From Vairimorpha necatrix (taxonomy: Eukaryota): a stretch of DNA of 64,000 nucleotides. Shown piece by piece: positions 2,164 through 59,824 of the stretch. Numbering within the stretch: the stretch's first letter is position 1; every line of letters begins with the position of its first letter. The stretch covers positions 930,001 through 994,000 of the forward strand of contig CP142730.1 in the NCBI GenBank assembly GCA_036630325.1, written 5' to 3'. The position numbers and the translations under genes were made by a program. The notes beneath the pieces are model-generated. The model was given only the letters and a program-made list of their open reading frames with translations. It searched no databases and was not told the origin of the DNA.

Positions 2164-3025
2164 ATGTGTTATTTATTTTTTTCAGGCTTTTTTCCCCACA
2201 AATTATTAAGACCAGTATAAACAGCAAAATTTTTCTTAAAGATCTGTAAACGGTATTGGTAATTGTGAACTATTGTTTTTTCCAATTTTTGAAAATCGAC
2301 CACCCGATAAAAAATTTTATATTTTCGGGGATTAACTTTAGAATACTATTACGAATCATGAAATTTTAAAATAAATGATATAAAATAATTTGTTCGAATT
2401 ATTACAACAACAATCGTAATGTTTCGATCGAAGAGAACTTCTTGAAATATAATATATTTCAAAAATCGAAACCAAATGAGCTTGAATACCTTAAGTGAAG
2501 AAACAAAACTTTTAAACTAAATTATTTTTCTGATATATATATATTTTGATATTTACGCGTGTGTTATAAAGAAGTCATGAATAACGTAAAATTAACAGAA
2601 TAGTATATTTCAAAAATTATTAGACAACATACACGTTTTGTACCAAATGGTATGAATAATAAATTACATTTGTTTAAAATTAAATCATGTAAAGACCAAA
2701 TAAACACTATTATAAATTGTTTAGGGGAAATTGATTAAAAAAATATTTAAATTTACAAAAACTAATCGGGATCTATTTTTAAAGGCGTAATGGACAAATT
2801 TTGACGAATAAAATGACTTATATGATATTGACATTAAAATTTTTGAATTATAACTGCAATAAAAACTACAGAAAAGACAACATGAAGGATGCATCAATGA
2901 CAATATAACTGTAAGTAAAACTAATAAGAAAATTATATTTTTGATACAAATTTTACTAAACGTGGAAATGAAATACAAGGCAATGTATTTTGGACAAGTA
3001 TTATTATTGACATGAAAAGTTTACT
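2164..3025 (+). pseudogene. Frameshifted pseudogene of the Cys-head surface-protein family, closest to 10045-11028
   Basis: CCC-TTA-ATG at 2158-2166. Family motifs lie in broken frames: IKTSIN, NTITNHEI (~2341-2365), IIRQHTRFVPNG (~2615-2650), and a 3' part resembling the YFDTIST stalk end. The 3' end is approximate. Confidence 0.8.
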
Positions 3026-3645
3026 AATATTTACTTCAATATACAGAATTTTTATAAATAATTGTCACAAAAAAGACACATAATTTGTTTGATGTTTTAT
3101 ATAATTAAATAACATTGAATTTGTTATTATTCATAAATCCTTAGATTATATTAAATTTTATGGTATATTTATATTATATATCTATTTTTTTTTTTTATTA
3201 AACATTAGTACTATTTTAATAAAAATCTATACAATCTAATCACATCATAAGATAGAAAGGAAAAAAATCTTTTTTTATTGTAATATTTAGTTTGCGATAA
3301 AAAATAAATTATATTTTACTTATGATTCTAGACAACATATTAACAAATTTATGTTCTCTTTCCGTCGATATTTATATTTTTTTTGTAAAAGCATTATTTT
3401 AGAACGGTATAAAATTTTGATAGCCATTTCAATCATACTATTCTTCTATTTAAGTAGCTTAAATAGCTCTTGTATATTATATAGTAGCCTCTTCGGTCCC
3501 TAATGATTTATTTCTATACTTTAATCTTCGATAATCTTAAAATTTTCCTCATAGAAACATTAAGAATATGTTTAAATAAAGAGATATATTTTCTAATTTT
3601 CTGTGAAATTTGGCCAAAACACAATTGCGTCATCACATATGGCAC

Positions 3646-4447
3646 TTTTTTTTTTTTTTTTTTTTTCTTGCAAGTAAGAGGTAGGGAGAAACCTTACATA
3701 GGGACCAGAGGGATTTAAGTGTGATCCTCATCCAACTGGTACTGTGAGATTCTTACTCACTAAAACTCCCTCCATACACTTGCCGGTGCAGCAAGCTCCG
3801 CCGTATCCATTGGACTTTGGCTCCAGGAGAACACTTTCCATTTATACCTCAAATCGCGTCCAGAGTGACCTCACAGCGGATATACTTAACGGGCATGGTT
3901 ATCTATAACCCGAGGATAGACATCATCGTACTGACTCAAAGGTCCCTACAATCATCCGTATTGCACACACGGCTCCTTACACGACCACATCCCCAGCCCG
4001 GCGTTTTTATTAGGCTGCGTTGACCACCAGTCTCCCACTAGTTTCGGCCACCGTGTTACAGAATCATGTAGGATAGGGCCCACGAGACCTTCTATTGCCC
4101 TACTTCGTCTAGTCTCTTAGTTAGCTCTAGGATCCCACTCTAGAGTGCACCAGCCATGGGCTCCAATTAGGCCGTACCCATTAGATACTTTTATGTATCA
4201 TTAAGTCACCAAAGAGTGATACTGCTTTTTGGCCTTGAGGTGCGTTTATACACTAGATGCTAATCCCCTTGTGGCTGGACACACACAAGTTTCATTGAAT
4301 CAACTTAATGATTATCGTGGACATTTTCATCATCTGAGTTGTTCGAACTGCATCATAGAAAGTAGAAACAATTTTGGTGCCCCTGGGAATCGAACCCAGC
4401 CATTGCTCAATGGGAGCATTGCATTCTACCACTGTGCTAAGGGCACC
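3646..4447 (-). mobile_element. tRNA-derived SINE (~800 bp) with poly(A) tail and target-site duplication
   Basis: GC-rich island. tRNA-like head at 4447-4376, 21-nt poly(A) (T run 3646-3666 on +), and direct repeat CATATGGCAC at 3636-3645 and 4448-4457. Confidence 0.88.
4376..4447 (-). promoter_or_regulatory. tRNA-like SINE head with Pol III A and B boxes
   Basis: Minus strand reads GGTGCCC-TTAGCACAGTGGTAGAATGC-AATGCTCCCATTGAGCAATGG-CTGGGTTCGATTCCCAG-GGGCACC. It has a 7-bp acceptor stem, A box TAGCACAGTGG, a perfect T arm with B box GGTTCGATTCC, and a non-canonical anticodon arm. Confidence 0.8.
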
Positions 4448-4901: not shown

Positions 4902-5941
4902 GGTTGATCGGACCGAAATTCACCTTTTTTTGATGTCTTCAAATTTTCATTTTTTCACCCCAAAAAATGAAATTCCAAAAGTTGAGGAAGAAAATAAAAA
5001 AAGAATAAAAGTTTTAAATATTTAATTTTTCATATTAAATTACGTTAAAACAACTTATTACAGGATGAGTATTATAGTTTTTTATTAACATGTACCTCAC
5101 TAAATACCTATTAATTAATTTCCTTGTTCTACATCTGTATGGTATATGCTGTTTTAAACCAGACCATGTTCCTTCGATAGTATTAGTATGTATTCCTGTC
5201 TCGGGATCTTTAAAATATTTAGAGTGGTTTACAGTGTGGTGACTATAACCTTCATTTTGAATGCCCGTATATCCCTTCCAACAGTCAGAATATAATTTGC
5301 TACCTTCTTTTACACTATTTTTAATGTGAAATTTTAACGTACTTTTAGTACGATCACTAACTTGAAATAATATGACTAATTTTTTTACCATCTCTTTCAA
5401 CTACTCCAAATAGCCAAACTCCTCCTACTGGATGTCCACGATTATATTTATTCTTTCCAATCTTTGACTCATCCATTTCAACTGTTTCACCAGGATTCCA
5501 ATATATTCAATGTTTTGGTAGAATTTTTTAACTAGTACTTCACTAGTTTCTTTCAATATTCTCCATATAACTTTTTTATCAATTTTGGTTACGTATGAAA
5601 TAGTATCCACACTACATTTTGATAACCAGAGGTCAATAACCTCGATAATTTCACTTTAGAAATTTTTACATGACTAAATATTGTACCTTTCCAAACATTA
5701 ATATGTTTTTTATATAGTGGACATATTTTATTTGTACATTTCATATATTCATACTTATTTTTTGTGTATGATGTAAGCTCTTCATTGCATATTTTACAAT
5801 TGCTAAGTTGTAAGATTTTTATTTGTTGTATTATTTTCTCTTCAATCTCTCTTTTCCTCAACTTTGGGAATTTCATTTTTTGGGGTGAAAAAATGAAAAT
5901 TTGAAGACATCAAAAAAAGGTGAATTTCGGCCCGAAGGTCC
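4902..5941 (-). mobile_element. Merlin (IS1595/ISXO2-like) DNA transposon with long TIRs
   Basis: GG...CC termini, ~85-bp near-perfect TIRs (ggttgatcggaccgaaattcacc...aagttgagga and its reverse complement), and 9-bp TSD CATCAAATC at 4893-4901 and 5942-5950. Confidence 0.92.
5035..5876 (-). pseudogene. Frameshifted Merlin/ISXO2-like DDE transposase
   Basis: Three ORF pieces (5589-5876, 5425-5610, 5035-5400) carry an N-terminal Cys ribbon, YSDCWKGY, HHTVNHSKYFKDPETGIHTNTIEGTWSGLK. Confidence 0.9.
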
Positions 5942-6679
5942 CATCAAATCTAATCTGATTGTTTCTATTGACCAAAATTTATTAAGCTGATTTTTTATTA
6001 TTTTCGACAAACCTCTTCTTTGTTTTAAATTTTTAATGTAAGGAGTTAAATTAACATATACTGCTCCTTTACGATCGAATATTTTTTGATTTCTAGATTA
6101 TATGTAGAACGTTCGTTATTTATTTATTGCGCAATTTAATTTAAACGATCTATAATTATTTAATTAGTAATTTAATACAAAAGTCATATTATACGTAAGC
6201 ACTTGTGTAAGTTTTTATTTTGCGAAGACTTTCGATTTCAGATATTTACAGTAATTTTCCCTCGATGATCGAGGAAAGCCTTCTTTAACAAACATCTTAA
6301 TTCTTTTCATATGACTAGATGAATATAAAAATCTTTGTTATAACCAATAGTTGAATACTTATAAATAGTAACTATGAATTATAAACAAGTTTTTAGATAT
6401 TTATTTAGGTAAACTTTTTTTAACAACAAATTTATTATATTTACATATAGAAAAAAGATTTATATGCTCTAATTATGTTTTTACACAATTACATATATGC
6501 AATAAATATAATGGTTTTCGAAAACTGAAAAGAACTCGACTTTTTAGTGATGCTGAATTGTAATTTTATATAAATCAACTTCAACGAGAAAACTCATTTT
6601 AAAATTTAAGATATTTTTGTATCATTTAATTTATCTAAATAAAGTATTTAAAAATTATAAAAGTAATTTTTTAGGTATA

Positions 6680-7767
6680 GATACATTAAACAAGCATCAG
6701 CATGATGTTACATATAAAACAACACAATATAATAAAAAAAGGTAACACATTGATTATAGAAAAGTTATTGTTTTAATCTCTTATTTCTTTGTGAACTTTT
6801 AACACTTGTTCAAACTTTTGTTTGCACACTTTATAAAATCGTGTGAATGCCTTGTAACGCATTTTTGTATGTTTATAACACCATGATAAAGTATTAGTAG
6901 CCAAGTACGATATTTTGGATCTGAATTTAGAAAATAAACAAGAAATTGTTGACCAAATATTTCCTAATGATGAAGAAATTATTTCTCTCAATCTCATTAT
7001 ATTCTTAAAGACGACATTTCTGATCCTTTTGAGGTGGCCGGGCAATGGTTCTGAAACTTTCTTCTTCGGCTTAATGTTCTTCCAATCTAATGGTGAATTA
7101 CTTAGAAGAACATAGATTTGATCTTCCAATCTTACCACACACACTTCTTCGTTCTTTTCTTCTTGTATCCTTTGTAAAAGAGTTATTCCCAAATCCATCT
7201 CTGTAGGAGGATATAAAAGCTTCCTTATGCTGACAGTTTTAATTAAGAACAGGACTTCAAATAACATGTTTATTTACATAAAATTTTATATTTATATTTA
7301 TTTCTGAAACAAATTTTTTTAAAAAAGAAAAGTAAAATAAAAAAATTCTTATTAATGATTATATTAGTGATTTATCAAATTTAATTTTTCATTTTTCTAT
7401 TGCATTGTTTCATTGTTTCAGATGTGTTTTGGTCTAAACATTTAAAAAAAGAACTTGAAAAAATATGGTTAATCATTGAATTTATGTACTTTTGTTACTA
7501 ATTTTTTTCTAAATTTTTTAAAATTTTAAGCTGTCAAACTGATTTGATATGCTTGATATCAAAGTTCATATCAATCGAATAAATTTTCAACCTTCTTTTA
7601 AAGTCGTATAATGTATTTTGGACAATGTGTTTGGTGAATCAACAAACAAAAAAAAACACTCATTTTTAATGAAATTGATTTATACACTATATTTCACGAT
7701 TATGTATAAAATTAATGCCCTGTCAATGTTTTACAAATACCATATATTACTTATATGAATTTTTTTA
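6680..7767. repeat. Segmental duplication copy B (164-aa gene plus flanks)
   Basis: Aligns nearly base for base with ~15680-16760 outside the variable part of the ORF. Confidence 0.9.
6773..7267 (-). CDS. 164-aa orphan protein, copy 1 (hydrophobic N-terminus, basic amphipathic C-terminal half)
   Basis: The ORF is kept at the same length in the paralog at 15778-16272 despite ~30 aa differences, with no indels or stops. It lacks the CCC motif before the ATG. Confidence 0.7.
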   Translation of the reverse strand: MLFEVLFLIKTVSIRKLLYPPTEMDLGITLLQRIQEEKNEEVCVVRLEDQIYVLLSNSPLDWKNIKPKKKVSEPLPGHLKRIRNVVFKNIMRLREIISSSLGNIWSTISCLFSKFRSKISYLATNTLSWCYKHTKMRYKAFTRFYKVCKQKFEQVLKVHKEIRD

Positions 7768-10044
7768 TCGTTCTCAGTTTGTAAATCTATTTAAAATTAA
7801 TAAGAGGATTCTATAGAAAAATAGAACTAAAACATTTTGTTTTAATATGTCAGGCGCTTAATGCATGATAATATAAACCCTCAATTTAATATTGATGCAT
7901 CAGATAACATTCGAGACTTTGCTAATATCAAAAATAAAGATATTTAGAAAAATCTTGATAGTTATATTGATATAAATATAGTTAAAATTAAATACGCTAT
8001 GCATTTAAAAAAATAAAAATTCTAGCAAAAACAAATTTGCGTTAAGAATATATTTGTTAATACTATTTACTTTATATTGTAGGGAAACATTTACTTATGA
8101 ACAATTTGATTATAATATCATAAATTCTTGTGTATTTAGACATATTTACTGAGGATTTTACTATATTTTTTTTATTACGCTTCAAAAGAAAATATAGTAT
8201 TTATTCTATAAGTATAAAATATTATTCACAAAAAATACATGATTTATAACATCACTTAAAAGACTTTTTAATAACAAGTTTTGTTTTGGTATATTGATAT
8301 TTTCTGAAATTTATTAAAATTGGATTCATATTTAAAGTCGTTTTGCTTTTAATGTGTTTATGTATTCAATGTGTTCATCATTATGAACTTTGTTTTTATA
8401 CATACAAATTCCTTTGTTTTATATTTTTAAAGAAACTATATCATGAATGAGAAACTTGTTCATGGTTTTTTGTAAAGTTTCTCATATTTATTTGTTGTAT
8501 AACAGCTACGTAAAATTAATTTCTGTAGAATGCCACCTTACGGCAAATAATACAGTAGGTTGTGGCTACAATATGTACGTAAAGTACAATAGACATAAAA
8601 GGCACATGGAGAGACCTCAAAGTAGGATGTCTTTCAAAGCAGTTTAAATACCATTGAAAAGAGATAGAACATATTAAAATGTTACAGGTTTCTGTATTGC
8701 CTGTTTGGCAGAGAAGAAAAGCGGTTGACTGCCAGTACAACTATCGGTTTGCTTGTTTAATGTAATGATTCCTATTAGCATAGATCTATTTTTTATTAAT
8801 TTAACAATGAAGTGCCTATAAACAAACAAGGCTCTAATAATATACATTTTTGAGGATTTTCCTAATATATATACAGAATTGCAATAGATCTTTTGATCCA
8901 TATCTAAAAAATCTTTGTTAGATTTTTATTACTCCGAAAATTTGAGATTGCGCTTATATAGTAAAAAAACCAAATTTCCACCAAAGAAATTACAGTCCTA
9001 ATTTTATACTGAATTTAATGTTAGGGTTCTTTCTATCATTATTATTTATAAAAATAATATTTAATTTTAAAAAAATTTATACTTTTTTGATATACTACTA
9101 ATTAAATTAATTATATTATAACAGTCATATCTTCACAAGTCGTAAGATATAGCAAATAATCTACTACAATATTATTACTAATATGAATATTACATAATTT
9201 ATATTATTATCACAGAACATTCATAACAAGGTTAATACTAAAAAAAATTATTCGATGCTATAAATAAGAGATAAATACCCAAAAACAAGTATAAATAAAT
9301 TATATTCAATAATTAAAAGGTTCTTTTGTGTGACAGTTTTATTTTTTAAAAATTAAAATTGTTGTGTATTTAACACAGATGTTACAAAATAATAAAACTT
9401 AAAGAACCTTGTGAAATTCTAATCAAAACTACCTTCTTTTACAGGTTTTTATATTTCCTATTATAACTTTAGATAAGCCGAAAAAATTAATGTCAAAACA
9501 TTGTTGTAACAGGATAAAATTTGGAAAATATGTTAAAAAATATTATCTCAAAGATTATTATGTTGAAATATAAGTTTTGAATTTTCATTTTTTTGATTTA
9601 GGATTATAAACTTTCTTCCTCATCTTGTTTTTTTTAATATCAAATTCTACATGTATTTTTATGTAAAATAACCTCGGAGTGAAAGTTTTCCAAAATGTGA
9701 TTGTAAACCTAATAATATCGATCTGTAAAGTTTCTATGGACAAATTTATTTAATTATATCAGCCAAGCGCTTTATAAGACGTAAAAAACAAAATGTTCGT
9801 ATTTAAACATATAATATTGATCTATATTGCTTCTTCATGACGAATTTCTTAATAAATATCTTCAACGAGCTTTAAGATTCGTAAAAAACAAATGTCAAAT
9901 TTTAATATTTGAATTTTTATCTTAGTAACAGCTTGTTTTTTATATACAATGACATAATTATGTAGAAAATAAAATAAAAAGAAATTAAAATTTTTTAGGT
10001 TAACTCTTTTTTTTATATAAATTAAATTTTTTTTATCTTCCCTT

Positions 10045-11028
10045 ATGTTTAATTTATCTTATCTTACAGCTCTTATATTTCATGTAAAAAACATAAAAAC
10101 CAGTTTAGATATTGAAGATTCCCTTAAAAAAGTTGTCAACAGTATGGATGTTTGTATTCCATTTACTCGACCAATTTATGATAATCCATTGTCAGATAAA
10201 AATTTTAATATATTTTATGAATTTTTTTGGAACACAATAACAAATCATGAAATTTTTTTAAAAATGACCAAAAATGATTTTTCAAAAAACAGTTTTAATA
10301 ACAGAAATATATCTTTGAAAAACAAATTCTTAAAATCCCTGAGGATTAACAAACTGAACACTGATGAAAGTAGCAAATATTCAAATGGAGAATTATTATT
10401 TATTGAAAAAATTTTATTTGGAACAGAAGAGTATTATGACATACTACGTATATGTTATAAAGATGTTATAAACAATGCTGTATCTGCAATAAAGAATATA
10501 GAAGAAATCATTAGACAACATACATGTTTTATACCTAATGGTGCAAGTAAGGAACTTCCGCTACCTGTTTATAAAATATGCAAAGGCCTAATAACTAATA
10601 TTAATTTTTGTTATGGAGAAGATGGATTAAGTTATTTCCATGATTTCATTAAAATTAATCACGATAATTTATCAAAAGCAGAATGTATAAATTCCAACGA
10701 AGACTATCTCACAATTGATATATTTGCTACAAAAAAAGACAATAATACGGAAACTTTTACAAATGAGATAAATAATATAACAGAATTTATCGAAGAACAA
10801 ACTGACAAGATAAATGCGTTGAATACATCCAAAACAAACAATTATTTTGATACAATTTCTACTGAGGAAACGAATATGACAAGTAATTTACAAATTTGGT
10901 GGTTAACGGCTGCTGTAATTTCTGTATGTTTTATAATATTAGGCATAATGTTTATGTTTAAAAAATACAAATGTTGGAAGAAGAAGCCGATTGAAAGAAA
11001 TGAAGTTTTATTGACGTCTACAAGTTAA
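10045..11028 (+). CDS. Cys-head type I surface-protein family member (327 aa)
   Basis: CCC-TT-ATG start, signal-peptide-like N-terminus, motifs WNTITNHEIF / LRICYKD / IIRQHTCF / LPLPVYKICKG / KAEC, short T/N/E stalk, TM helix WWLTAAVISVCFIILGIMFMF and basic tail. Confidence 0.92.
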   Translation: MFNLSYLTALIFHVKNIKTSLDIEDSLKKVVNSMDVCIPFTRPIYDNPLSDKNFNIFYEFFWNTITNHEIFLKMTKNDFSKNSFNNRNISLKNKFLKSLRINKLNTDESSKYSNGELLFIEKILFGTEEYYDILRICYKDVINNAVSAIKNIEEIIRQHTCFIPNGASKELPLPVYKICKGLITNINFCYGEDGLSYFHDFIKINHDNLSKAECINSNEDYLTIDIFATKKDNNTETFTNEINNITEFIEEQTDKINALNTSKTNNYFDTISTEETNMTSNLQIWWLTAAVISVCFIILGIMFMFKKYKCWKKKPIERNEVLLTSTS

Positions 11029-12604: not shown

Positions 12605-13440
12605 ATGAATATACTAATTATTTTTTGTTTGTTTTACACCCAGGTATACGTAAATTTAGTATCACTTTGAAAGTTTGTTCAATGAAATTATCATTAACGG
12701 TGTAATTTGTGATTCAGATAGAATATGTAATAACTTAAATAAAACATTATATAAATTGTTCAAAGTTATTACGAAATTGTATGGGAGCAATCACGATATA
12801 TTTAATAAAATTATTTAAAAAGATATTTCTGAATATGATTTTATTAATAGAAAAATGCTAATAAAAATGGCTTATCTAACACACTCAAACTTTTATAAAT
12901 GGGATTGGGAAATAATGAATTCTTTTCATTTCATAAAATGATTTACTTGGAAAATTAACAATATGCTTTAGATGCTTAAATACGGATTATTTATAAAGAA
13001 TATTTATATACTTCAAAATCTCTTATAAAATCAATTTAAGACATTATTAAAACGACTTGTGTTTCATATGCGACATAAATATTTAACAAATCTATATATT
13101 GGTTTATTAAAAATGTGAAAATAATTTTAATATTATGATAAATGTAATAAAGAGATTGGTAATAAAATCATTTATAACAAGATCAAATATGATCACGAGC
13201 AAGTGTTAAGAGCAGAATGTACTAATGATAAATATGATTCTAAAAATTTATTTGATATAATTAGTACCTATATATTAGATGTTACTCCAACAAAGAATAC
13301 CACCACTATTGATACTGAATTTGGTAGTATAAAGTATATCTAATACTTACAATTGTCATAATATTTAGTTTAATCATCATATATTATTGCTACAGATATT
13401 TCATAAAAGAGCTGTTTATTTCCAATAGAAGCCTTATATA
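12605..13440 (+). pseudogene. Decayed pseudogene of the surface-protein family
   Basis: CCC-TATTA-ATG at 12597-12607. Remnants include VICDS, EIVW, KWDW, DIIKTTCV and EQVLRAECTND (~13197-13230), followed by a Thr-rich stretch and a hydrophobic end. Many stops. Ends approximate. Confidence 0.7.
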
Positions 13441-14250: not shown

Positions 14251-14589
14251 CCTTGCGAACGAACTGGGCCTAATATATGGTTTATAAACAGAAATAATTC
14301 CCTACGTAATCACTTGGGACTGTATAGTGACTAAGTTTCACAAATCTTATACCACAAGACTTGAAATCCCTAAGAAGGTAGAAGCGTACATCCAGATGAT
14401 CACGCAAAGAAGACGCTAGAAAGCATTTCTCTGGACTACCGAAGGAGAGGAGACGAAGCCGATGTGGAAAGAACTATGGAGACGAGAAGCCACCTACAAG
14501 CAGGAGACGCCAACGCGGAACCTATCCTTGTTAAACTATAAATATAAACTACAATAAGCATACCCTAATTAAATTCATTTATTTTTTTT
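14251..14589 (+). mobile_element. 5'-truncated non-LTR retrotransposon (REL-endonuclease type), 3' end only
   Basis: Encodes LANELGLIYG..TEIIPYVITWDCIVTKFHKSYTTRLEIPKKVEAYIQ. Flanked by 12-bp direct repeat ATAAATTCCTCA (14239-14250, 14590-14601). A near-identical copy lies at 63270-63605. Confidence 0.85.
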
Positions 14590-15552: not shown

Positions 15553-15679
15553 AAATAATTATATTTCGATATTTACTGTATTATATAAATCTGTAATAGA
15601 CACACATATCCAATTTTTTTTTGCAATATTTTCAAATTATTTAATTCATCTAAATATAACGATAAAAATTTAATTTTTT

Positions 15680-17180
15680 TATGTATAGCTATATTAAACA
15701 AGAATCAGCATGATGTTACATATAAAACAACACAATATAAAAAAAAGAAACACATTAATTATAGAAAAGTTATTGTTTTAATCTCTTATATATTTGTGAA
15801 CTTTTAACACTTGTTCAAACTTTTGTTTGCACACTTCATAACCCCGTATAAATGTCTTGTAGCGCATTTTTGTATGTTTATAAGACCATGATAAAATATT
15901 GGTGTATAGACTCGATAATTTACATCTAAATTTAGAAAATATATGAGAAATCCACGACCAAACATTTCTTAATACCAAAGAAATTATTTCTCTTATTCTC
16001 TTTATATTCTCATAGACGATTTTTCTGAATCTTTTAAAGTGCCCGGGCAATGGTTCTGAAACTTTTTTCTTCGGCTTAATGTTCTTCCAATCTAATGGTG
16101 AATTACTTAGAAGTACATAGATTTGATCTTCAAATCTTACCACACACACTTCTTCGTTCTTTTCTTCTTGTATCTTTTGTAAAAGAATTATTCCCAAATC
16201 CATCTCTGTAGGAGGATATAAAAGCTTCCTTATGCTGACAGTTTTAATTAAGAACAGGACTACAAATAACATGTTTATTTACATAAAATTTTATATTTAT
16301 ATTTATTTCTGAAACAAATTTTTTGAAAAAAGAAAAGTAAAATAAAAAAATTCTTATTAATGATTATATTAGTGATTTATCAAATTTAATTTTTCATTTT
16401 TCTATTGCATTGTTTCATTGTTTCTGATGTGTTTTGGTCTAAACATAAAAAAAATAACTTGAAAAAATATGGTTAACAATTGAATTTATGTACTTTTGTT
16501 ACTAATTTTTTTTAATTTTTTTTAATTTAAAGCTGTCAAACTGATTTGATATGCTTGATATCAAAGTTCAAATCAATCAAATATATTTTCAACCTTCTTT
16601 TAAAACGTATTTTGTATTTTGGAGAATGTGTTTGATGAATCAACAAACAAAAAAACACTCATTTTTAATGAAATTGATTTATACACTATATTTCAAGATT
16701 ATGTATAAAATTAATGCCCTGTAAATGTTTTACAAATACCATATATTACTTATATGATCTTTATAATTTTATAAGTTATGAATCGGGCTATATTCTAAAA
16801 GTCGATTATAATGAAAAATAATAGTAACATCTTGTTTCAATATGGCGAAAACATCATGCAAAAATAACATAAATTTACGGAAAATGATAAAGCACGAGGC
16901 AGTAAAAAGACTGTTGTTAATGTTTGTAAACAAAAAGATTGCTTTTTATGGTTGGCATTATATGTATATACTCTACAATCAATTTCCTACAAAAAACAGA
17001 CCTTGAAAATCTATATTAATAGTTTAAATGAAATATATATTAATTTTTATTTTTTTAATTAAATAAACATGAATTTTTGAATATTAAAATGTTTTTTGCA
17101 AAATACTTTTTTTTTATAATAGCTTTTATCATATATGGAATTTTATTCAATATTCATCAGTGTTGATATTTATTTTGAAA
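15680..17180. repeat. Segmental duplication copy C
   Basis: 15680-16760 matches 6680-7767, and 16637-17180 matches 1-540. Confidence 0.88.
15778..16272 (-). CDS. 164-aa orphan protein, copy 2
   Basis: Paralog of 6773-7267 with the same length and an intact frame. Confidence 0.7.
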   Translation of the reverse strand: MLFVVLFLIKTVSIRKLLYPPTEMDLGIILLQKIQEEKNEEVCVVRFEDQIYVLLSNSPLDWKNIKPKKKVSEPLPGHFKRFRKIVYENIKRIREIISLVLRNVWSWISHIFSKFRCKLSSLYTNILSWSYKHTKMRYKTFIRGYEVCKQKFEQVLKVHKYIRD

Positions 17181-17284: not shown

Positions 17285-18316
17285 TTAATTTATTTCAGAA
17301 TCACTGTTTCTTTGAGATCTTTTTCTTTTATAACACATTATTCCGAAAAAAATGAAGAAGGAAATAAAAATAAATAAACTTACAATGCCAATTATCAAGT
17401 CACTACCAATGTTCACAGTTGAAATGTCCGAAGTCTTTTGAAATACAGTATCAGTTATGTTATCGTTTTCAGTAATATTGTTAGAATTAATAGCAAATAC
17501 ACCAACTAAATCATGAGTTTTTGCAAATAAATTTTCGTTGATAATGATATTTTTTATATTATTATTAATAATATCATTGAAAAAAGAGGTAGTATTGTTA
17601 TTATTAGAAATTGTAGTGTCGCTTACACTATAAATTTCAGTAGTAAAATCATAAAAACTATTACTTACATTAGAACATTCTGCCTTTAGTAAAAGATTTT
17701 GATTTTTAAGTATCTCTTTTTGAAATTCTTTAAAATGTTTTAAAGAATAACAATCATCGTAATAAGAAGTAAGATTTTTACACTCTTTATAAACTATAGT
17801 TGGCAAGTTTTCATTTATACCCTTTGGTATAAAACAAATATTTCTACTAACTATATCTTTTATTGCATTTTTAGCAGACATTGCGCTTTTTATTGTATCT
17901 TTATAACAAAGTCGTAGCATTATATAAAATTTATCAACAACTTTTAGAATTTCATTAACAAATAATTCTTCGGGGGCGATAACCTGTTTCCATAGACTGA
18001 AATCAACTATTTTTCTACCAAATTTTTGGTCAAATGCTCTGTGTATTATGTCTCTTCTGACAACAAAACTATGTTCCGCGGTATCATTTTGTGTTATTCT
18101 TTTAAAAATGTAATGATTCGTTATTATGTTCCAAATAAGATCATAAAAAATCTGAATATCTGATTCTGACAATGCAAGATTGTACTGTGTATCTACTACA
18201 TCATCACAATTGTTACTATAAAAAACTAAAGAATTTAAAACAAATTCTTCATTATTAATAGTTTGAATTGCTATTGTCATAAATAGTAAATACAAAATAT
18301 TACTAGAACAAATCAT
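17285..18316 (-). CDS. Cys-head surface-protein family member (343 aa)
   Basis: CCC-TTC-ATG start, motifs WNIITNHYIF, LRLCYKD, NICFIPKG, LPTIVYKECK, LLKAEC, Asn-rich stalk, TM helix and YKRKR tail. Confidence 0.9.
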   Translation of the reverse strand: MICSSNILYLLFMTIAIQTINNEEFVLNSLVFYSNNCDDVVDTQYNLALSESDIQIFYDLIWNIITNHYIFKRITQNDTAEHSFVVRRDIIHRAFDQKFGRKIVDFSLWKQVIAPEELFVNEILKVVDKFYIMLRLCYKDTIKSAMSAKNAIKDIVSRNICFIPKGINENLPTIVYKECKNLTSYYDDCYSLKHFKEFQKEILKNQNLLLKAECSNVSNSFYDFTTEIYSVSDTTISNNNNTTSFFNDIINNNIKNIIINENLFAKTHDLVGVFAINSNNITENDNITDTVFQKTSDISTVNIGSDLIIGIVSLFIFISFFIFFGIMCYKRKRSQRNSDSEIN

Positions 18317-24234: not shown

Positions 24235-24666
24235 TATGGGTAGTAGAAAAAAAAAAATATTTATCTATAAATTAAGTTGACTTTAAAAATTTTATAAACT
24301 TTTTTTTAATATTTCGATATTGAATAGTTTTTTAGTAAAATTTTATGTTTGCAATAGGCAAAATAAGGTATATTAGATTTTTGACAGGTAAATTTAAAAA
24401 AACAAAAAAAAATAATAGTTACAGAAACATAATTTGAAATAAATTTATATTCAATTTAAAGAAATTTTATCGCAAAGTAACTTTTAGTACGGCCAAATGT
24501 GTTTTGAAGATACGAATTATCAAAATTGAAATAAAACATAATTAAATCTTATAAAAAAACAGTTTGATTGTATTTGAAAGACAAAAACAGAAATAAACAA
24601 ATTTATTTGATTTTTAATCATTTAAACACTTACTTTTCTTGATATACTAATAGGCTTTGCATTTTT

Positions 24667-29157: not shown

Positions 29158-29427
29158 TGTCATGTCCTCAAAACCATGACATCTGTGTTTTACTGTGTTA
29201 AAACTTTAATCAGTAAAACACTGCCCCGAACGAATAGTCTAAGGCGGTGATCTCTAACGATCGGACATGAAACGTTATGTTTCATAAATAAATATAAATA
29301 GTCCAAAAAAGTTAGAAGACACCGAGCATGAAGAGTAACTTTAATAACAAATCAAATAAAAAGAAATATAATACAAATATTTTAGAAATGTATTTAAAAA
29401 ACGGAGATATTACTCCAGTTCATGTCA
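29158..29427 (+). repeat. 5' LTR
   Basis: TGTCATG...CATGTCA, matching 31491-31760. Confidence 0.95.
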
Positions 29428-29440
29428 TTTTGAATTCAAA

Positions 29441-42738: not shown

Positions 42739-43154
42739 TATGGGTAGTGGAAAAAAATTATTTGTATATAAATATAAGTTGACCTTAAAAGTTTGTATAT
42801 CTTTTTGTACATTTTTCATAATTTTTGGTATTTTAATAAAATTTTATGTTTTTAATATGTAAAATTAAGTATATTGGATTTTGACACGTCCACTTTTTCA
42901 ATTAACAAAATTTAAAATCGGCTAAACAAAATCTTTGTAATAAAAACATAACTTTATTAAAAATTGTATATTACTGTAACGAAAGATTCTAAAATAAATG
43001 TAACTCGAAGATACATTTATTAAAATAAAAATAAGTCATATATGTCTCGTACATTGAAACACATTAAAACGTATCTGAGATAAAAAAGACAGACATAGTT
43101 TAAATTTATGCAATTTATACATTTTTAAATACTAAATAAAAAAAATCTAAAAGA

Positions 43155-47100: not shown

Positions 47101-47648
47101 GACAAATGTTAAATAATAAAATTTTATATGCTTTTGTTCACATATACTTTCTAATTTTAGTAAATCGATTATAAACATACACAAAGTTTATTTTGACAAA
47201 AAATATTACAAAACAATTTTTTTAAAAAGCGTATTTTAAGCATTGGAATTGAACAATATGATTAAATTCTCGAATAATATAATTTTGTAGAAAAACTACA
47301 TAAAATTTATAACGTAGGTAATGTAGAACTAAGTTATTAAAATATAAAAAAGTAGAATAATATGATCAAGAATTTTTTGAAAAGTATTAAATCAAAATTT
47401 TTTGTTCAAATCGATTAATATTTTCCATATTTTTGAACAATATATATTCGATATTAAATGTTTTTTTTACAAAAAAATATTTTTGGCTAAACTTGTTTAG
47501 AATTAAAATAAGGGATTACATCAAAAAAAATAAAAACTACTTTCTTATATTTTTTTAAAACGTAAAAACGCAAAAATAAAATAAATCTCATAACATTATT
47601 TTTTTTAATTAATATCAAAGACTCCCAAATAAATATATTATAACTTTA

Positions 47649-48560
47649 TTAAGAATAATTAGATACTTTAATTCTACATTTCTTAGATCCTTTATTAAAA
47701 TATATGTAACCCAAAAACATAAAAATCATGCCGATTATAATAAAACTTAAAAGATATATAAACCCAGGTCGTTCCCAGAATTCAATGTGATTAGCTTTGT
47801 TGTTCATGGTTTCTGTTGAATTAAACGCAAATACACTAGAATTATTAGTTATATTGTTAAATTTGTTTATACTATTATTTAAAAAACTTTCGCTTTCTGA
47901 GTATTCATTATCTACTGAGCAAAAAGCTTTTAGGACCTTATCGTGTTTTCTGTTAGCTTCATCGACTATATATTTCAGTCCTGTTGTTCCAAAACATTTT
48001 ACAAAATTAAAACCTAAACCTTTACACATTTTAAAAACAGGTAATGGTAAATTTCTACTTATACCATTCGGTACAAAACATGTATGTAACTTAATTATAC
48101 CTCGTATTGTTTCTTCTGGATTTTTACTATCATTTATAATATCTTTATAACACATACGAAACATATCAAAATATTCAATCGCTCCACTTTTCAATTCCTC
48201 GATAAATTTTCTTTCTGGTCTTATAAGAGTTTTCGATATGTTAATATCCCAATTTTTGAGACTTAAATTAGACAAATAAACATCTCTTAACTGAATTCTT
48301 CTATTTGAAAAACTTCTCTCTGAATTATCATCTTGTGTTAATCTTTTAAATATTTCAAGGGTTGTTACCGTATCCCAAATAAATTCACTGAATAAAATAC
48401 CATAGTTTTCTGGCAAATTATGATTATTAATTTTGCTATCTAATGATTCACATACATTGGTGCCATTAATAACAGAATATAAAAAATTGTCTTCGCCATT
48501 AGATTTTACCACACCTAACATGAAAAATACTGAACCACAAAAAATTTTCAATAATCTCAT
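47649..48560 (-). CDS. Cys-head surface-protein family member (303 aa, short stalk)
   Basis: Start revised to the ATG after CCC-TTT (the ORF track used TTG at 48569). Family motifs, TM helix and tail present. Confidence 0.92.
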   Translation of the reverse strand: MRLLKIFCGSVFFMLGVVKSNGEDNFLYSVINGTNVCESLDSKINNHNLPENYGILFSEFIWDTVTTLEIFKRLTQDDNSERSFSNRRIQLRDVYLSNLSLKNWDINISKTLIRPERKFIEELKSGAIEYFDMFRMCYKDIINDSKNPEETIRGIIKLHTCFVPNGISRNLPLPVFKMCKGLGFNFVKCFGTTGLKYIVDEANRKHDKVLKAFCSVDNEYSESESFLNNSINKFNNITNNSSVFAFNSTETMNNKANHIEFWERPGFIYLLSFIIIGMIFMFLGYIYFNKGSKKCRIKVSNYS

Positions 48561-48724
48561 AAAGGGCAAATTTTTTTTTGTTATTTATATAAAGCAAAAT
48601 ATCTAATTTAAATAAAATATTTTTTGATTATTAAATTGTTTAAATTTTTGCATCTTCTTACATACAAATCAATATCTTCAATTTTAATTAGGTATATTAA
48701 ATTTTACGCAAATTAAATGTTATA

Positions 48725-51624: not shown

Positions 51625-53571
51625 TTAAACTAAAGAATACTGCCGATACCTTCTGTTGCACCTTTTTTTGTAACGCCAAATTCCCAACACTATAAGAATA
51701 AAACTAAAAAATATAAAAAGCACTGTTTTATCAAAACCTCTATTTTCGAAGGAATTAGTATTTGCAATTTCTAACATTGTTAAACGCTCTGATTTTATGT
51801 TATCAGATATAATATAGTTTTCAGAGGCATCATAATTATTATTATAATTAGTCGTGCTTTCTGTAAAAGTATTAGAATCAGTAGTTGTATCTATAATTTC
51901 ATTGAAACCAATAGGCATTGTAGAAATATATTGATGACCTGTGATAGAGTCGATTATTGTATTAAAATCATAATTTTTTTCGGTTTTAATAGTAGATTCG
52001 ACATTATCCCGCTTGATGCCGTTAAAATCGGTGGTAGTATCTGTAGGGATATCAAAATCTGTTGTAGATTTAATTACACTATTAGAAGAAATAGTTGCAT
52101 CGGAGAATAAATTATAATCGGCATTAGACACTATAAACTCCTTGAAATCAGTAGTTGTCTCAGTAATATTATTATTGTATTCGATAGTTATGTCAGTAAT
52201 AATATTAAAATATTTAGTATAATCAGTGATGTTATTTTGATTAGTGTTTGTCTCCGTATTTATTAGACTTTCTTCAGTAGCTTGATCAAAAAATTCATTA
52301 TTACTTTCAGTAGTCGTTTCATTAAGTACATTTTTTATTATCGTAGACTCTGGATTTTTTTTATATTCCGTTGTAGTTTCTATCATATTAAAATCTGTAT
52401 AAACTTCAGTAATCATTTTATTTTCTATAGTTGCTTCTGTTTCATTATTACTTTTTATGTTTTCTCTTGTCATACAATTTGTAGCAATATCTGTACTTAA
52501 ATAATATTCTGTAGTTATATCGAGTTTGCTATTAAAATTGCGAGTTGTTTCAGAACCACTAGAATAATTTGTAAATTTATAAATAAAATCATAATCCATC
52601 GTATTTCCAGTTATGTTCATATTATTTGAACTTTGCTTTATATTTTTATCAGTTGTAGCTTTATAAATATCATCCATCTCTGTAGTAATTTGAGTACTAT
52701 ATTCAAAAAATTCAGTTTCTGTTGATACATCATTTTTAAATAAGTTGGTGTTAGTAGGCTCATTTCCAATGGCATAATTTAAATAATTAAAAGTTGTATT
52801 GTCAATATAACTTTCATTATTGTTATTTGTAGTGTCATATAAACTATTAATCTCAGTTGTAGTTTCAGCTGTGTTGTAGTCTTCTGTAGTTGTATAAGTT
52901 ATATTTGTAATGTTGTAAATTGGTATAAAACATTCGGCTTTAGATACTTGATCGAGTTTTCTGTTGGCTTCATCGACTATATATTTCATTCCTTTTGTTC
53001 CAAAACATTTTACAAAATTAAATCCTAAACCTTTACACATTTTAAAAACAGGTAATGGTAAATTTCTACTTATACCATTCGGTACAAAACATGTATGTAA
53101 CTTAATTATACCTCGTATTGTTTCTTCTGGTTCTTTACTTTCATTTATAATATCTTTATAACACATACGAAACATATCAAAATATTCAATCGCTCCACTT
53201 TTCAATTCCTCGATAAATTTTCTTTCTGGTCTTATAAGAGTTCTCGATATGTTAATATCCCAATTTTTGAGATTTAAATTAGACAAATAAACATCTCTTA
53301 ACTGAATTCTTCTATTTATTAAACTTCTCTCTGAATTATCATCTTGTATTAACCTTTTAAATAAATCAAGATTTGTTACCGTGTCCCAAATAAATTCACT
53401 GAATAAAAGACCATGGTTTTCTGGCAAATTATGATTATTAATTTTGCTATCTAATGATTCACATACATTGGTGCCATTAATAACAAAATATAAAAAATCA
53501 TCTTCGCCATTAGATTTTACAAAACCTAACATAAAAAATACCGAACTACAAAAAAATTTATATAATCTCAT
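51625..53571 (-). CDS. Cys-head surface-protein family member (648 aa, long mucin-like stalk)
   Basis: CCC-TTT-ATG start, head ~89% identical to 47649-48560, ~400-aa Thr-rich stalk with ~10-aa periodicity, TM helix and RYKKR tail. Confidence 0.93.
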   Translation of the reverse strand: MRLYKFFCSSVFFMLGFVKSNGEDDFLYFVINGTNVCESLDSKINNHNLPENHGLLFSEFIWDTVTNLDLFKRLIQDDNSERSLINRRIQLRDVYLSNLNLKNWDINISRTLIRPERKFIEELKSGAIEYFDMFRMCYKDIINESKEPEETIRGIIKLHTCFVPNGISRNLPLPVFKMCKGLGFNFVKCFGTKGMKYIVDEANRKLDQVSKAECFIPIYNITNITYTTTEDYNTAETTTEINSLYDTTNNNNESYIDNTTFNYLNYAIGNEPTNTNLFKNDVSTETEFFEYSTQITTEMDDIYKATTDKNIKQSSNNMNITGNTMDYDFIYKFTNYSSGSETTRNFNSKLDITTEYYLSTDIATNCMTRENIKSNNETEATIENKMITEVYTDFNMIETTTEYKKNPESTIIKNVLNETTTESNNEFFDQATEESLINTETNTNQNNITDYTKYFNIITDITIEYNNNITETTTDFKEFIVSNADYNLFSDATISSNSVIKSTTDFDIPTDTTTDFNGIKRDNVESTIKTEKNYDFNTIIDSITGHQYISTMPIGFNEIIDTTTDSNTFTESTTNYNNNYDASENYIISDNIKSERLTMLEIANTNSFENRGFDKTVLFIFFSFILIVLGIWRYKKRCNRRYRQYSLV

Positions 53572-54697
53572 AAAGGGCAAATTTTTTTTTGTTATTTATA
53601 TAAAGCAAAATATCTAATTTAAATAAAATATTTTTTTAATTATTAAATTGTTTAAATTGTTGCATCTTCTTACATACAAATCATTATCATCAATTTAAAT
53701 TAGGTAAATTAAATTTGACAATTGGCAGTTCGTACATAATAATATAAACTAATGAAAGCTAAAATACTTCTTCAATCAAATCTAATCTCGATTGTAAACA
53801 AATATTAAACAAATTAAAAAATATATTGATAGAAAAATTCATAGAATAATACTTGATATAGATTTAAATATAAAGAATGTATGTAATAAAAACATAAAAT
53901 TTAATTGAATATATTGATTGTTTTTTTACCAAATCTGTACATGTTAAAAATACTTACAATATGAATTGAAATTATATATGACCTAAATTTTTTGATATTT
54001 ATCTAATTACGATGGTATTTTGCTTTATATAATTTCGACTCAAATAAATATTTTCAAATTTTTATGAATAAAATTTTTAAATTAATAATAGGAAAAAAAA
54101 TAATACAAGGTTAAATTATCCCCAAAATTTTGTGTAATTTTTACTTATAATTCTTATTTCTATAAATTATTTATTTTTATAATCGATTGCAAAAAGACAT
54201 GCGACTTCAAATGCTTCATTGCTGTTTGTAAACAAACAATCTTATTAGATATTTCTATGGATTTTACTATTTAAAAATGTCATACTAAACAATAACACAG
54301 TTTTTTCGATCAAGAAATATTTTTTTCGAATTAATAATCGCTATAGGGGCTTTATAACGCACTCTAGACCTCTATACAAAAGATATAATAATTTGTTTGT
54401 TTTTAAAAAATAAATGAAAAATTATTTTGATATCTAACAGACTTTATAATACTTATATATCTCATATTTATATAAAAAGATATACTAAATGGCTAATTCG
54501 AAGAAAAAAAATGATATTGTTATTCTTTTTAAGAAATTGGTTCTGTCAAAATACAATAACCCTAGTGTTATATATGTAGCAACAAAATCTAATTGTTGTG
54601 AAAATATATATTTAAGAAATTTAATCCTTAGCATACAATTATCATTAACACTAACAAAAAAAATAAAAGACCTTTTATAGTTAAAACATTATTTTTT

Positions 54698-57073: not shown

Positions 57074-57997
57074 CTATGATCGTCGTGTCTTTCTTTGGTA
57101 TCTTCTTATGAAGTACACACCATAAATGAAAAAGAAAATTACAATTGGTATCACTCCGCATATATAGATTGTTTGACCCCAATTTCCCCAGAAATTAGTA
57201 TTAGACTCATTAGTATTGTTGTTTTTAATTTGCGTCATATTAAAATTGTTAGTATTCGATATAGCTGTTACATTATCATTGTCCGTGTTAAATGCATTGT
57301 TTATGTTATCAATCTCACTAAAAAGAATTGTCGAAAAATTTTTAAATTCATAGATATCGTTAAAACATTCAGCGTTCAAAACTAATTCGGAATTAACTCT
57401 TATACTTTCAATTAACTGGCTTAGGTTGGCCTTTTTATTACACTTGATATAATGTGGAATAAAATTTCTACACATTTTATAAACAAGAAGTGGAATATTT
57501 TCTCTGTTATTATTTAATATAAAGCAGGTATTGTTCTTAATAATTTCTTTAATTGGCCCTATAATATATTGCATATTAGTTAATGCTTTTTTGTGACATA
57601 TATGTAACGTATTAAAAGACTTAAAGGCAATATCGATAATTGATTTGATAAACACATGTTCGTTGTCTATAAGAGAATTCATTATGTAATTATCCCATTT
57701 ATCTTTTTTTAATGTAGTTAAAAACGCTTTTCTTAATAAATCACTTCTATTTGAAAAACTATATTCTGAAATATCATGCTGTATCATATGTTTAAATATA
57801 TCATTGTTTGTAACTACATCCCATACAATTAAATAATAATTTGTCATAGTATTACTTGATACAGTATTATATAGATAAAACTTTGTTTCCAATGTATCAC
57901 AAACATTTTTATCAAAAATATGCTGCTTAATAGAATCTTCTATTGTGTTATACGTATCTAGTATTAACAATACTGTTTGAATAAAAAATATAATCAT
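57074..57997 (-). CDS. Cys-head surface-protein family member (307 aa; alternative start 58009)
   Basis: CCC-TTTA-ATG favours 57997. Motifs NVCDTL, WDVVTNNDIF, LHICHK, NTCF, IPLLVYKMCR, LNAEC, TM helix and RRYQRK tail. Confidence 0.88.
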   Translation of the reverse strand: MIIFFIQTVLLILDTYNTIEDSIKQHIFDKNVCDTLETKFYLYNTVSSNTMTNYYLIVWDVVTNNDIFKHMIQHDISEYSFSNRSDLLRKAFLTTLKKDKWDNYIMNSLIDNEHVFIKSIIDIAFKSFNTLHICHKKALTNMQYIIGPIKEIIKNNTCFILNNNRENIPLLVYKMCRNFIPHYIKCNKKANLSQLIESIRVNSELVLNAECFNDIYEFKNFSTILFSEIDNINNAFNTDNDNVTAISNTNNFNMTQIKNNNTNESNTNFWGNWGQTIYICGVIPIVIFFFIYGVYFIRRYQRKTRRS

Positions 57998-58960
57998 TAA
58001 AGGGAACATTAAATATTTTTATTAAATACAATAATATTAAATTTATATTGTGTTTGAAAATATTTGAATTAATGTATAGAATTTGTTTTTTTTTTTGTTT
58101 AAATAATCTAATGAGCATCGTTTTACACATATCATAAAATGTTAAATATATTAAAACATGACATCGTGTTTCCCATAATAAATATTTTTTATGAAATTAT
58201 ATTAGATATTTTCAAAATAAAGCAGTAAATAGTTCCGATGTTTTTTTCATCATAAAATTTATTAACCTATAAAACTTTATTTAAAATATAAAATGACATA
58301 AAAAATCAAAAATACTATAAGAAAAACATAATGTATCAATAAGTTACATTAAATGATGGTTATAAAAACACAAATCTTTATATTCAAATTAACTTTTGTA
58401 AATTTAAAATTTAAAATTTAAAAATTTAAAAAATTTTACAACAAAACAATAAAATAGCTGGATTTTATAAAAATTTATCTTAAAACAAAAAATATTAAAT
58501 TTTTTGGTCTTAATTGTATTTGAGGATTATTTTTTTTGATGACAGCACATCTAAATAAATGCATTAAGTGAAAAAAAATACAAAAAAAAGAGAAACTAAT
58601 AAAATATTGTCATTAAAAATATAAAAGCTTAGACATAAAATTTTAAAAAATTTGTAGTAAAATTTATTAGTAAACATATTATTTAATTAAAATTATATGA
58701 GTTATACATTGGAAGTTTAAAAGTATTTTTTGCATATAAATCTATAACCAATACAAAAAAAAATAGAAACTCGCATCATTCCTATACAAATATAATATGT
58801 CAACCTATTACATTTTTTATAAAATTTACAAAATAGAAGTCTCCCATTAGGTTTCCAATTTTTTCATTATATGTTAATTTGAACATATTTTTTTAAAAAA
58901 GTAAAGATACAATTTAAAATTTTTATTAATTTTCAACATCAAAATACTTTTTTAATAATT

Positions 58961-59824
58961 TCAAATAAAATTTTGATTTCTTCTTATATCATCAGCTCTT
59001 TTTATACTACTAGTATTATAGCATATATATCCTATAAAAGCACAGAAGCAGCTGATTACTAATAAAAGTATAGGAATAGAAATATCATTACTCCAATTAT
59101 AATCTGTAGTCCCAAAACTATATTGAAATGTTTGCAAATGTCTAGTTTCCGTTATATTAGAAACATCATAATTACTAGTTAAGCATTCTGCTATTAACAA
59201 TTGCTTTTGATTTTCTTTTATTGTATTATAAATATAATTCATTTCAAATTCACCATAACACTCTTTGTAATGACCAATTAGACCTTTACATGTCTTATAA
59301 ATAACAGAAGGTAAATGTTTATTTATACCATTCAATATAAAACAAGTATTTTGACTTATTATGTCTATAATTGCCTCTTTTATAGAGTCAGAATTGTTAA
59401 TAGTATCTTTATGACAGATACGTAATGTATTAAATATGTTTAAAGTGTTAGATATCAAATCTCCTATGAATTTCTTTTCGAATGTAGTAAGTGATTTTAT
59501 CAAATTATAATCCCATTTTTCAAGGCTTAATCTTTTTAAATATCCATTCCAAATTAAAATTTTTCTATTTTTAAAACTATAAATAGATGTATCATTTTGT
59601 GTCATCCTTTTGAAAATATCATGATTAGTTATTATATTCCATGTTAGTTCATAAACACTCCTAATTTCGTTATCTGATAAGCTGAGTTGATATATTCTGC
59701 TATCTAAGGAATCACAAACTTTATCACCATTAAAAATGGAATTTATTATTTCATACATATTCATCATGCTTTTTATATAACTAATTCCAAATATAATGTA
59801 CTGAAAAAGTATAGAAATCAACAT
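58961..59824 (-). CDS. Cys-head surface-protein family member (287 aa, shortest stalk)
   Basis: CCC-AAA-ATG start, VCDSL, WNIITNHDIF, LRICHKD, NTCF, LPSVIYKTCKG, LIAEC and TM helix. Confidence 0.9.
   Translation of the reverse strand: MLISILFQYIIFGISYIKSMMNMYEIINSIFNGDKVCDSLDSRIYQLSLSDNEIRSVYELTWNIITNHDIFKRMTQNDTSIYSFKNRKILIWNGYLKRLSLEKWDYNLIKSLTTFEKKFIGDLISNTLNIFNTLRICHKDTINNSDSIKEAIIDIISQNTCFILNGINKHLPSVIYKTCKGLIGHYKECYGEFEMNYIYNTIKENQKQLLIAECLTSNYDVSNITETRHLQTFQYSFGTTDYNWSNDISIPILLLVISCFCAFIGYICYNTSSIKRADDIRRNQNFI

Follow-up and report, generated by a model that had tools for sequence, protein, structure and literature searches.

Lineage-specific families of secreted and membrane proteins have been described in microsporidia. 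Reinke et al. (2017) defined a large gene family as one with at least 10 members and an at least 2-fold enrichment for signal peptides (SP) or transmembrane (TM) segments and, on surveying 23 genomes, counted 68 families of this kind, with 59 confined to a genus or species (PMC5423893). Most of these families have no known domain, their members are often adjacent, suggesting local duplication, and members from Nematocida were shown to be host-exposed by proximity labelling (PMC5423893). We analyzed a 64,000-nucleotide (nt) stretch from Vairimorpha necatrix (assembly GCA_036630325.1, contig CP142730.1, positions 930,001 to 994,000, forward strand), termed here the window, which holds a cluster of genes encoding proteins with a six-cysteine head, a stalk, and a C-terminal TM helix. 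V. necatrix is an insect parasite and a structural-biology model among microsporidia, with over a third of its genes unannotated; its genome was published in BMC Genomics in 2024 (PMC10759460), and the contig carrying the window is 1,297,884 bp long. Our best reading, to which we assign a probability of about 0.6, is that the cluster belongs to a Vairimorpha-lineage large gene family whose products are type I proteins of the parasite surface.

We searched a profile of the nine heads encoded by the intact genes of the window against 1.84 billion representatives of 50%-identity clusters. We obtained 51 matches at E ≤ 1e-3 (45 of them at ≤ 1e-10), of which 49 were judged credible; P0045 and P0050, which are internally repetitive and devoid of the family architecture, were judged spurious by eye. 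We looked up 30 matches, leaving 13 without look-up, and found 28 V. necatrix proteins, one V. ceranae protein (NCER_101438), and one spurious unnamed record. The 28 V. necatrix relatives are spread over 8 contigs, ten of them being on the window's own contig, and were named by the depositors "putative SP-containing membrane protein" (23 proteins), "SP-containing protein" (2), or "uncharacterized" (3). The UniRef name "Variable surface protein" carried by one member was treated as an automatic label and not as evidence. Word-indexed protein searches retrieved only 4, 3, and 1 proteins, and a scan of metagenomes with the nine-head alignment yielded 248 stretches with the pattern, none of which was confirmed by tblastn.

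The family belongs to the established category of microsporidian lineage-specific large gene families and is itself undescribed. It comprises the 28 looked-up relatives and the nine window genes in V. necatrix, with 49 credible 50%-identity clusters; a C-terminal TM segment was found by a hydropathy proxy in 40 of 45 family proteins versus 382 of 2971 genes in the genome table (PMC10759460), and among the 30 matches looked up the only relative outside V. necatrix is the V. ceranae protein. It lies outside the 2017 survey because the V. necatrix genome came later and was not among the 23 genomes. The first-pass annotation, made from the DNA letters alone, had called the family unnamed, which stands, but its kind was already known (PMC5423893), and the general picture of lineage-specific SP/TM families held since 2017 is unchanged. 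"SP-containing" does not occur in the text of the genome paper (PMC10759460), whose figures or supplements may list the family as a structural cluster, and literature searches combining "Variable surface protein" with microsporidia returned unrelated matter only. That paper's genome table counts 128 genes with SP and TM, so that the family, with at least 23 looked-up members named as SP-containing membrane proteins, seems to account for a considerable part of them. It thus provides a concrete candidate set for the parasite-host interface and a profile for searching new Nosematidae genomes.

As far as their published description goes, Nematocida NemLGF3 and NemLGF4 resemble the V. necatrix family in their C-terminal TM segment, absence of a known domain, enrichment in targeting signals, number of paralogs (10 or more per species), restriction to a genus or species, and adjacency. 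However, no sequence relationship is shown, the looked-up real relatives of the V. necatrix family being all from Vairimorpha, and the latter family differs in combining a leader with a C-terminal TM segment, a six-Cys helical head, and a variable stalk. For the ricin-B-lectin, serpin, and spore-wall expansions of Nosematida, a role at the interface with the host has been suggested (Svedberg et al. 2024, PMC10759460); as presented there, these families are likewise expanded and secreted in V. necatrix, but they have recognisable folds.

The V. ceranae protein NCER_101438 (P0052; 283 aa) has the same leader, head, and TM layout. It aligned with the head profile with an hhalign probability of 96.3% (E 1.6e-9) over 163 columns, Cys 1, 2, 4, and 5 being aligned, which supports that it is a true homolog. 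It differs from the V. necatrix proteins in that Cys 3 and Cys 6 are missing from the alignment and in its very long branch in the tree. It is apparently single-copy, as a protein search with it found only itself, and no publication was found for this locus tag in the literature searched.

We then looked for family copies in the window with a hidden Markov model (HMM) of the nine heads run against the six-frame translation. The nine intact genes were recovered at E 6e-83 to 3e-96 and, below E 1e-3, exactly three degraded copies were found in addition and nothing more, which is precisely the count of nine genes and three pseudogenes given by the first-pass annotation. The copies, named below by their lower coordinate or by a letter, are the following.

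2174 to 2753, plus strand: degraded copy A, head only, frameshifted (HMM and tblastn)
10045 to 11028, plus strand: intact family gene, 327 aa (HMM), the sole intact copy on this strand, CCC before the ATG at 10045
12645 to 13340, plus strand: degraded copy B, several in-frame stops (HMM E 4e-13 to ~13229, extended by tblastn to ~13340)
17285 to 18316, minus strand: intact family gene, 343 aa (HMM, alignment, hydropathy, CCC motif)
22858 to 24234, minus strand: intact family gene, 458 aa (HMM), within the segmental duplication 21238-24389
32279 to 33487, minus strand: intact family gene, 402 aa (HMM, alignment)
34183 to 35166, minus strand: degraded copy C (HMM at 34504-35069, extended by blastn)
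41371 to 42738, minus strand: intact family gene, 455 aa if started at the ATG at 42738, which follows a CCC motif (database model P0003)
47649 to 48560, minus strand: intact family gene, 303 aa, short stalk (HMM), its protein used for structure modelling
51625 to 53571, minus strand: intact family gene, 648 aa, 396-aa stalk (HMM, hydropathy, CCC motif)
57074 to 57997, minus strand: intact family gene, 307 aa if started at the ATG at 57997, which follows a CCC motif, or 311 aa if started at 58009
58961 to 59824, minus strand: intact family gene, 287 aa, shortest stalk (HMM, hydropathy, CCC motif)

The HMM matches of copy A lie in different frames at 2174-2491 (E 6e-9) and 2394-2753 (E 2e-18), and tblastn places them in frames +2 and +3. 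Copy B has lost the second Cys, in RxCYK. The HMM and tblastn pieces of copy C are spread over three frames, and its DNA is 69% identical to 47601-48628, i.e., to the whole length of the 47649 gene (blastn).

We then analyzed the sequences of the nine proteins. They share one layout, with an N-terminal hydrophobic leader, a ~195-aa six-Cys head, a stalk rich in T, N, and S, a TM helix, and a basic tail, and their alignment revealed that the six Cys as well as W62, T66, D78, S83, and R87 are invariant. The head motifs proposed earlier hold largely, except that the 57074 protein has HICHK instead of RxC[YH]K and that D-x-S-E-x-S-F-x-x-R has just three invariant positions, namely D, the second S, and R. 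Identity between heads ranges from 27 to 88%, close to the range of strongly diverged to ~89% first estimated. All six Cys are present in 44 of the 46 full-length rows of the 49-row family alignment, the other 3 rows being N-terminally truncated. Cys 1 and 5 are both missing from P0048, and Cys 3 and 6 from the V. ceranae protein; this co-loss, seen in two sequences and dependent on the alignment, is a hint as to how the disulfides may pair, the predicted bonds being C1-C5, C2-C4, and C3-C6.

The C-terminal TM segment is single and strong in 9/9 proteins (Kyte-Doolittle 19-residue mean of 2.2 to 3.1) and is followed by a tail of 7 to 27 aa with 3 to 5 K/R, which agrees with the single helix and short basic tail seen in the first pass. 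Such a tail predicts, by the positive-inside rule, that the head is oriented toward the lumen or the outside. Our leader and TM calls are hydropathy proxies, and the "SP" naming is the depositors' label. The stalk measures 29 to 396 aa in the nine proteins, as against ~35 to ~400 aa estimated at first, and 20 to 499 aa (median, 72) from the last Cys to the TM segment across 45 family proteins. In these 45 proteins, the stalk differs from the head by its content in T (13.5 versus 5.3%), N (15.6 versus 9.8%), and Cys (0.3 versus 3.3%), S being also enriched. Tandem Repeats Finder detected no tandem repeats in the stalk-coding regions of the window, which argues against the stalks being recent tandem arrays.

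Two of the five aligned proteins without a C-terminal TM segment by hydropathy are database models that cut the TM segment from an intact open reading frame (ORF). P0001 (352 aa; 32279-33487) diverges from the ORF after residue 349, loses the TM helix, and terminates with unrelated residues. P0009 (300 aa; 57074-57997) departs from the uninterrupted ORF shortly ahead of the TM helix and also terminates with unrelated residues; it implies a ~406-nt intron with a non-GTAAGT donor, which removes the TM segment, the tail, and the stop. These models are probably annotation artefacts; if true, the introns of P0001 and P0009 would yield a secreted, anchor-less isoform.

AlphaFold2 modelled the 47649 protein with a predicted local distance difference test (pLDDT) score of 74 from 9 sequences and with a mean pLDDT of 82.8 from 49 sequences, 172 of the 303 residues reaching at least 90. 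The head of the latter model (~residues 30 to 215) is composed of nine helices and one beta hairpin (160-163 / 173-176), the stalk falls below a pLDDT of 50, and the TM segment forms a long helix. At the threshold of E ≤ 0.001, Foldseek gave no match in the PDB (best E of 1.1 and 0.65 for the 9- and 49-sequence models, respectively, with TM-scores of at most ~0.2) nor in BFVD (best E of 0.19). Hits to the trypanosome surface proteins 5vtl and 6xz6 (E 1.6 to 2.3, TM-scores of 0.10 to 0.14) were discarded as noise. A sequence profile search of the PDB gave a lone match at E 0.73, over the TM region, and Pfam gave only scattered sub-threshold matches, each in 1 of the 49 members, in line with the initial observation that no named domain was recognisable. 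The head thus matched no well-characterised housekeeping family in the Pfam, PDB, and BFVD searches, a match that the first-pass annotation had named as capable of overturning its proposal. An ESM Atlas model of a family protein was poor (pLDDT 0.36) and gave no usable feature match. Based on the predicted model, the head apparently adopts a new fold, the absence of a known fold being provisional and relating to the PDB and BFVD only.

A CCC directly upstream of the start codon is recorded as a transcription-start signal in microsporidia (PMC2803860). In 9/9 family genes, an in-frame ATG (the first one in 8/9) has CCC at most 12 nt upstream, compared to 49 of the 2248 ATGs of the window; in the ninth gene (57074), CCC precedes the second in-frame ATG, at 57997. 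The family genes also have a TATA-like A/T block ~30 nt upstream. On these sequence features, the nine intact copies are probably real, expressible genes. The N-termini of the database models P0004 (gene 10045-11028) and P0007 are set 33 and 13 aa further downstream, respectively, so that the leader is missing, and the position of the CCC motif favours the longer N-termini.

The ratio of nonsynonymous to synonymous substitutions (dN/dS, Nei-Gojobori) of the heads is between 0.31 and 0.82 in all 36 pairs, with values of 0.53 (dS 0.13) and 0.61 (dS 0.26) for the two young pairs. This indicates proteins that are constrained but fast-evolving, under purifying-to-relaxed selection, and the 36 pairwise comparisons of the nine heads gave no evidence of overall positive selection. 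The family could conceivably be neutral debris that hitch-hikes with transposable elements (TEs) or decays, its frames being open by chance or by recent origin: 3 of the 12 copies are dead, the dN/dS of 0.5 to 0.8 in many pairs amounts to relaxed constraint, and TE remnants and a very young long terminal repeat (LTR) element are found within the array. However, open frames of 287 to 648 aa are unexpected by chance in DNA of 23% GC, no family gene is located inside the LTR pair or beside a transposase in a fixed arrangement, and, above all, the six Cys and core residues are kept across copies that are 18 to 30% identical and the start signals are present in 9/9 genes. On Cys conservation and start signals we rejected this explanation, which we consider extremely improbable. 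An origin as a retroelement envelope protein was rejected as well, as the sole LTR pair (29158-31760) encloses only a gag-protease-integrase ORF and no family gene.

We then examined how the copies are arranged. Between 17 and 60 kb, the eight intact genes, like copy C, all have the minus orientation, which unequal crossing-over would be expected to produce, and a segmental duplication (21238-24389 / 39801-42889, 73% identity over 3220 nt by blastn) holds genes 22858 and 41371 with their flanks. In a maximum-likelihood tree of 46 heads (3 short rows dropped), the nine window genes fall in a clade of 21 (support of 97/86) with three chromosome 5 neighbours and nine proteins without look-up, and members from other chromosomes branch deeper, a pattern expected for local tandem expansion. 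Since the relatives on the same contig have accession numbers from WUR03596 to WUR03639, the chromosome 5 cluster seems to run beyond the window. Pseudogenes, segmental duplications, and a local clade all bear out the birth-and-death mode of evolution proposed at first. The proposed dedicated array is indeed a local cluster, but not a self-contained one, at least 47 V. necatrix proteins of the family being distributed over at least 8 contigs. One same-contig protein outside the window, P0051 (WUR03634, 324 aa), aligns with the first three quarters of the head profile (hhalign probability of 97.9%), but the conserved Cys are gone, as is the C-terminal part typical of the family; it is a derived and possibly neofunctionalised family member.

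Genes 47649 and 51625 share a tract that is far more similar than the rest of their sequences.

47940 to 48707, minus strand: tract covering promoter, leader, and head, 94.7% identical over 769 nt to 52951-53719 (blastn)

The tract begins ~150 nt before the ATG and ends at ~codon 207, shortly ahead of the last Cys, and on both sides identity drops sharply to a background of ~45% (sliding window). The two genes have unrelated stalks, of 49 aa (47649) and 396 aa (51625). As copy C resembles the 47649 gene through the stalk and TM segment, the short-stalk form is, judged by this resemblance, the older one, and a head with its promoter was probably copied onto a different stalk gene, in the single event of this kind that we observed. 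This 770-bp tract illustrates cleanly how heads may be exchanged as modules within a gene family of microsporidia.

Exchange of this type would also be expected from a true variant-antigen or contingency system of the VSG, var, or vls type, in which each parasite would express a single copy or very few and switch its surface by transferring head cassettes from locus to locus. A TE-rich region with pseudogenes scattered through the array, helical Cys-braced heads, and a ~95% identical promoter-plus-head tract on unrelated stalks are features that such a system would share. However, every intact copy has its own TATA-like and CCC signals, so that nothing points to one expression site accompanied by promoterless silent cassettes; dN/dS is below 1, and we found a single exchange tract among 9 genes. 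To our knowledge, insects lack antibody-based adaptive immunity, hence immune-evasion switching has no obvious driver. We consider such a system very unlikely, and variant-antigen switching is unsupported. A long shot of the same order is a variable coat driven by gene conversion, with promoter-plus-head cassettes of an unseen three-disulfide helical fold that would be copied from locus to locus and onto stalks differing in length, a subset being displayed per parasite lineage. If true, the exposed surface would change between hosts or tissues, and a variant-surface system would exist in a fungus-related parasite of insects.

The likeness to variant-antigen families drawn by the first-pass annotation is organisational only. 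Plasmodium RIFIN, STEVOR, and PIR proteins are encoded in large, lineage-specific arrays with pseudogenes and have a small variable helical Cys ectodomain, a TM segment, and a short basic tail. They are alike in layout but have no homology to the V. necatrix family, and the hosts of V. necatrix have no antibody response. RIFIN (PF02009) reached 18.0 bits, versus a cut-off of 32, in 1 of the 9 window proteins, over the stalk, TM segment, and tail, and matched none of the 49 members at E ≤ 0.01. Trypanosome VSG shares the disulfide-braced helical ectodomain and diversification by copying of coding cassettes, but it is anchored by glycosylphosphatidylinositol, whereas the V. necatrix proteins are anchored by a TM helix and tail and have promoter signals on every copy.

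We propose that the V. necatrix family consists of type I surface proteins. The N-terminal leader, cleaved or uncleaved, would send the protein into the secretory pathway. The ~195-aa, mostly helical head would face outward, probably braced by three disulfides, and would stand on a T/N/S-rich stalk, disordered and differing widely in length between members, which is probably O-mannosylated, a modification recorded for the secreted microsporidian protein PTP1 (PMC10468886). The single TM helix and short K/R-rich tail would hold the protein in a parasite membrane, candidate surfaces being the plasma membrane of intracellular stages or of the sporoplasm, or the spore surface. The most likely role would be that of a repertoire of surface binding modules contacting host molecules, and a surface or adhesin function is plausible from the architecture. 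The repertoire would grow by head-to-tail tandem duplication, copy decay, and ectopic exchange of promoter plus head onto different stalks.

Alternatively, the proteins may be structural or assembly components of internal or spore structures and not binders of host ligands, the stalk being a spacer and the expansion serving dosage or stage isoforms. Candidate sites are polaroplast or sporoplasm membrane precursors, the outer layer of the polar tube, the spore wall, and the sporophorous vesicle. The polar tube typically contains disulfide-rich secreted proteins and proteins with O-mannosylation (PMC10468886), disulfides would fit an extracellular location in the spore, and dN/dS is below 1 in 36/36 pairs. 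A pull-down with V. necatrix PTP3 yielded unnamed signal-peptide proteins of unassigned function (PMC10931468), but no family gene identifier (none of the chr-2 to chr-7 type) is given in the main text of that study, whose tables are in the supplements. Such components are also usually conserved across Nosematidae, whereas we found one weak V. ceranae homolog, and a head identity down to 27% in one array with stalks of 20 to 499 aa is unexpected for stoichiometric building blocks. We therefore regard a structural role as unlikely, though a credible contender.

Several points weigh against our proposal that these are type I proteins of the surface. The N-terminal leader is short, with weak hydrophobicity in 2/9 proteins, so the signal-like N-terminus of the first-pass annotation is present as a hydrophobic stretch but is not equally clear in all of them. 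The head has no detectable structural analogue, which makes binding a guess from the architecture. A disulfide domain would be unusual in the reducing host cytoplasm, so that a lumenal position or one on an extracellular stage is favoured over the surface of meronts. No pair has a dN/dS above 1, and dS is at least 0.75, near saturation, in 34/36 pairs, so that this test has little power. The shared tract of genes 47649 and 51625 could be a partial duplication fused to another stalk rather than a conversion. Finally, the sole homolog outside V. necatrix is one weak V. ceranae match, which leaves nothing to borrow from studied species.

We finally looked into the other content of the window, which is AT-rich (22 to 28% GC per 4-kb window). 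There are 18 ATG-started ORFs of at least 100 aa (standard code), nine of which are clear paralogs by alignment, and the only ORFs above 165 aa are the nine family ORFs and a retroelement ORF. The remaining ORFs of at least 100 aa are TE-derived, repeat-borne, antisense to family genes, or unexplained, and no housekeeping gene was seen among the window ORFs. The TE-rich setting in a probable microsporidian described in the first pass agrees with the mobile elements below and with the V. necatrix origin of the DNA.

5035 to 5876, minus strand: IS1595/ISXO2-like DDE transposase remnant (Pfam PF12762)
29158 to 31760, plus strand: LTR retroelement inside the array, outside the family (LTR pair and ORF domains)
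35981 to 36250, plus strand: IS1595/ISXO2-like DDE transposase remnant, similar to 5035-5876
62109 to 62945, minus strand: IS1595/ISXO2-like DDE transposase remnant, similar to 5035-5876

The retroelement has two LTRs of 270 bp each, 100% identical (blastn), with TG..CA ends; AATAT flanks the element on either side, and the 3' LTR is preceded by a G-rich tract. It contains a single 679-aa ORF with gag-type aspartyl protease and integrase domains (Pfam), in which Pfam gave no match to a reverse transcriptase. With its identical LTRs and no reverse transcriptase match, it looks like a very recent insertion of a presumably non-autonomous element lacking this enzyme. PF12762 matched transposase remnants at E 5e-15 and 8e-12. 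All three remnants, which we take to derive from a Merlin-type DDE transposon, are fragmented into several ORFs, and in each remnant the N-terminal ORF is zinc-finger-like and preceded by CCC.

Two copies of a 1.24-kb repeat, at 6611-7849 and 15626-16844, are 88.6% identical (blastn) and carry a conserved 164-aa ORF (6773-7267 and 15778-16272) that has no Pfam match and no CCC start motif; they constitute an uncharacterised repeat family. A further repeat piece, at window positions 1-502, matches 16637-17134 at 83%. An inverted pair of 340 bp and of unassigned nature (14251-14589 / 63270-63607) shows 94.7% identity.

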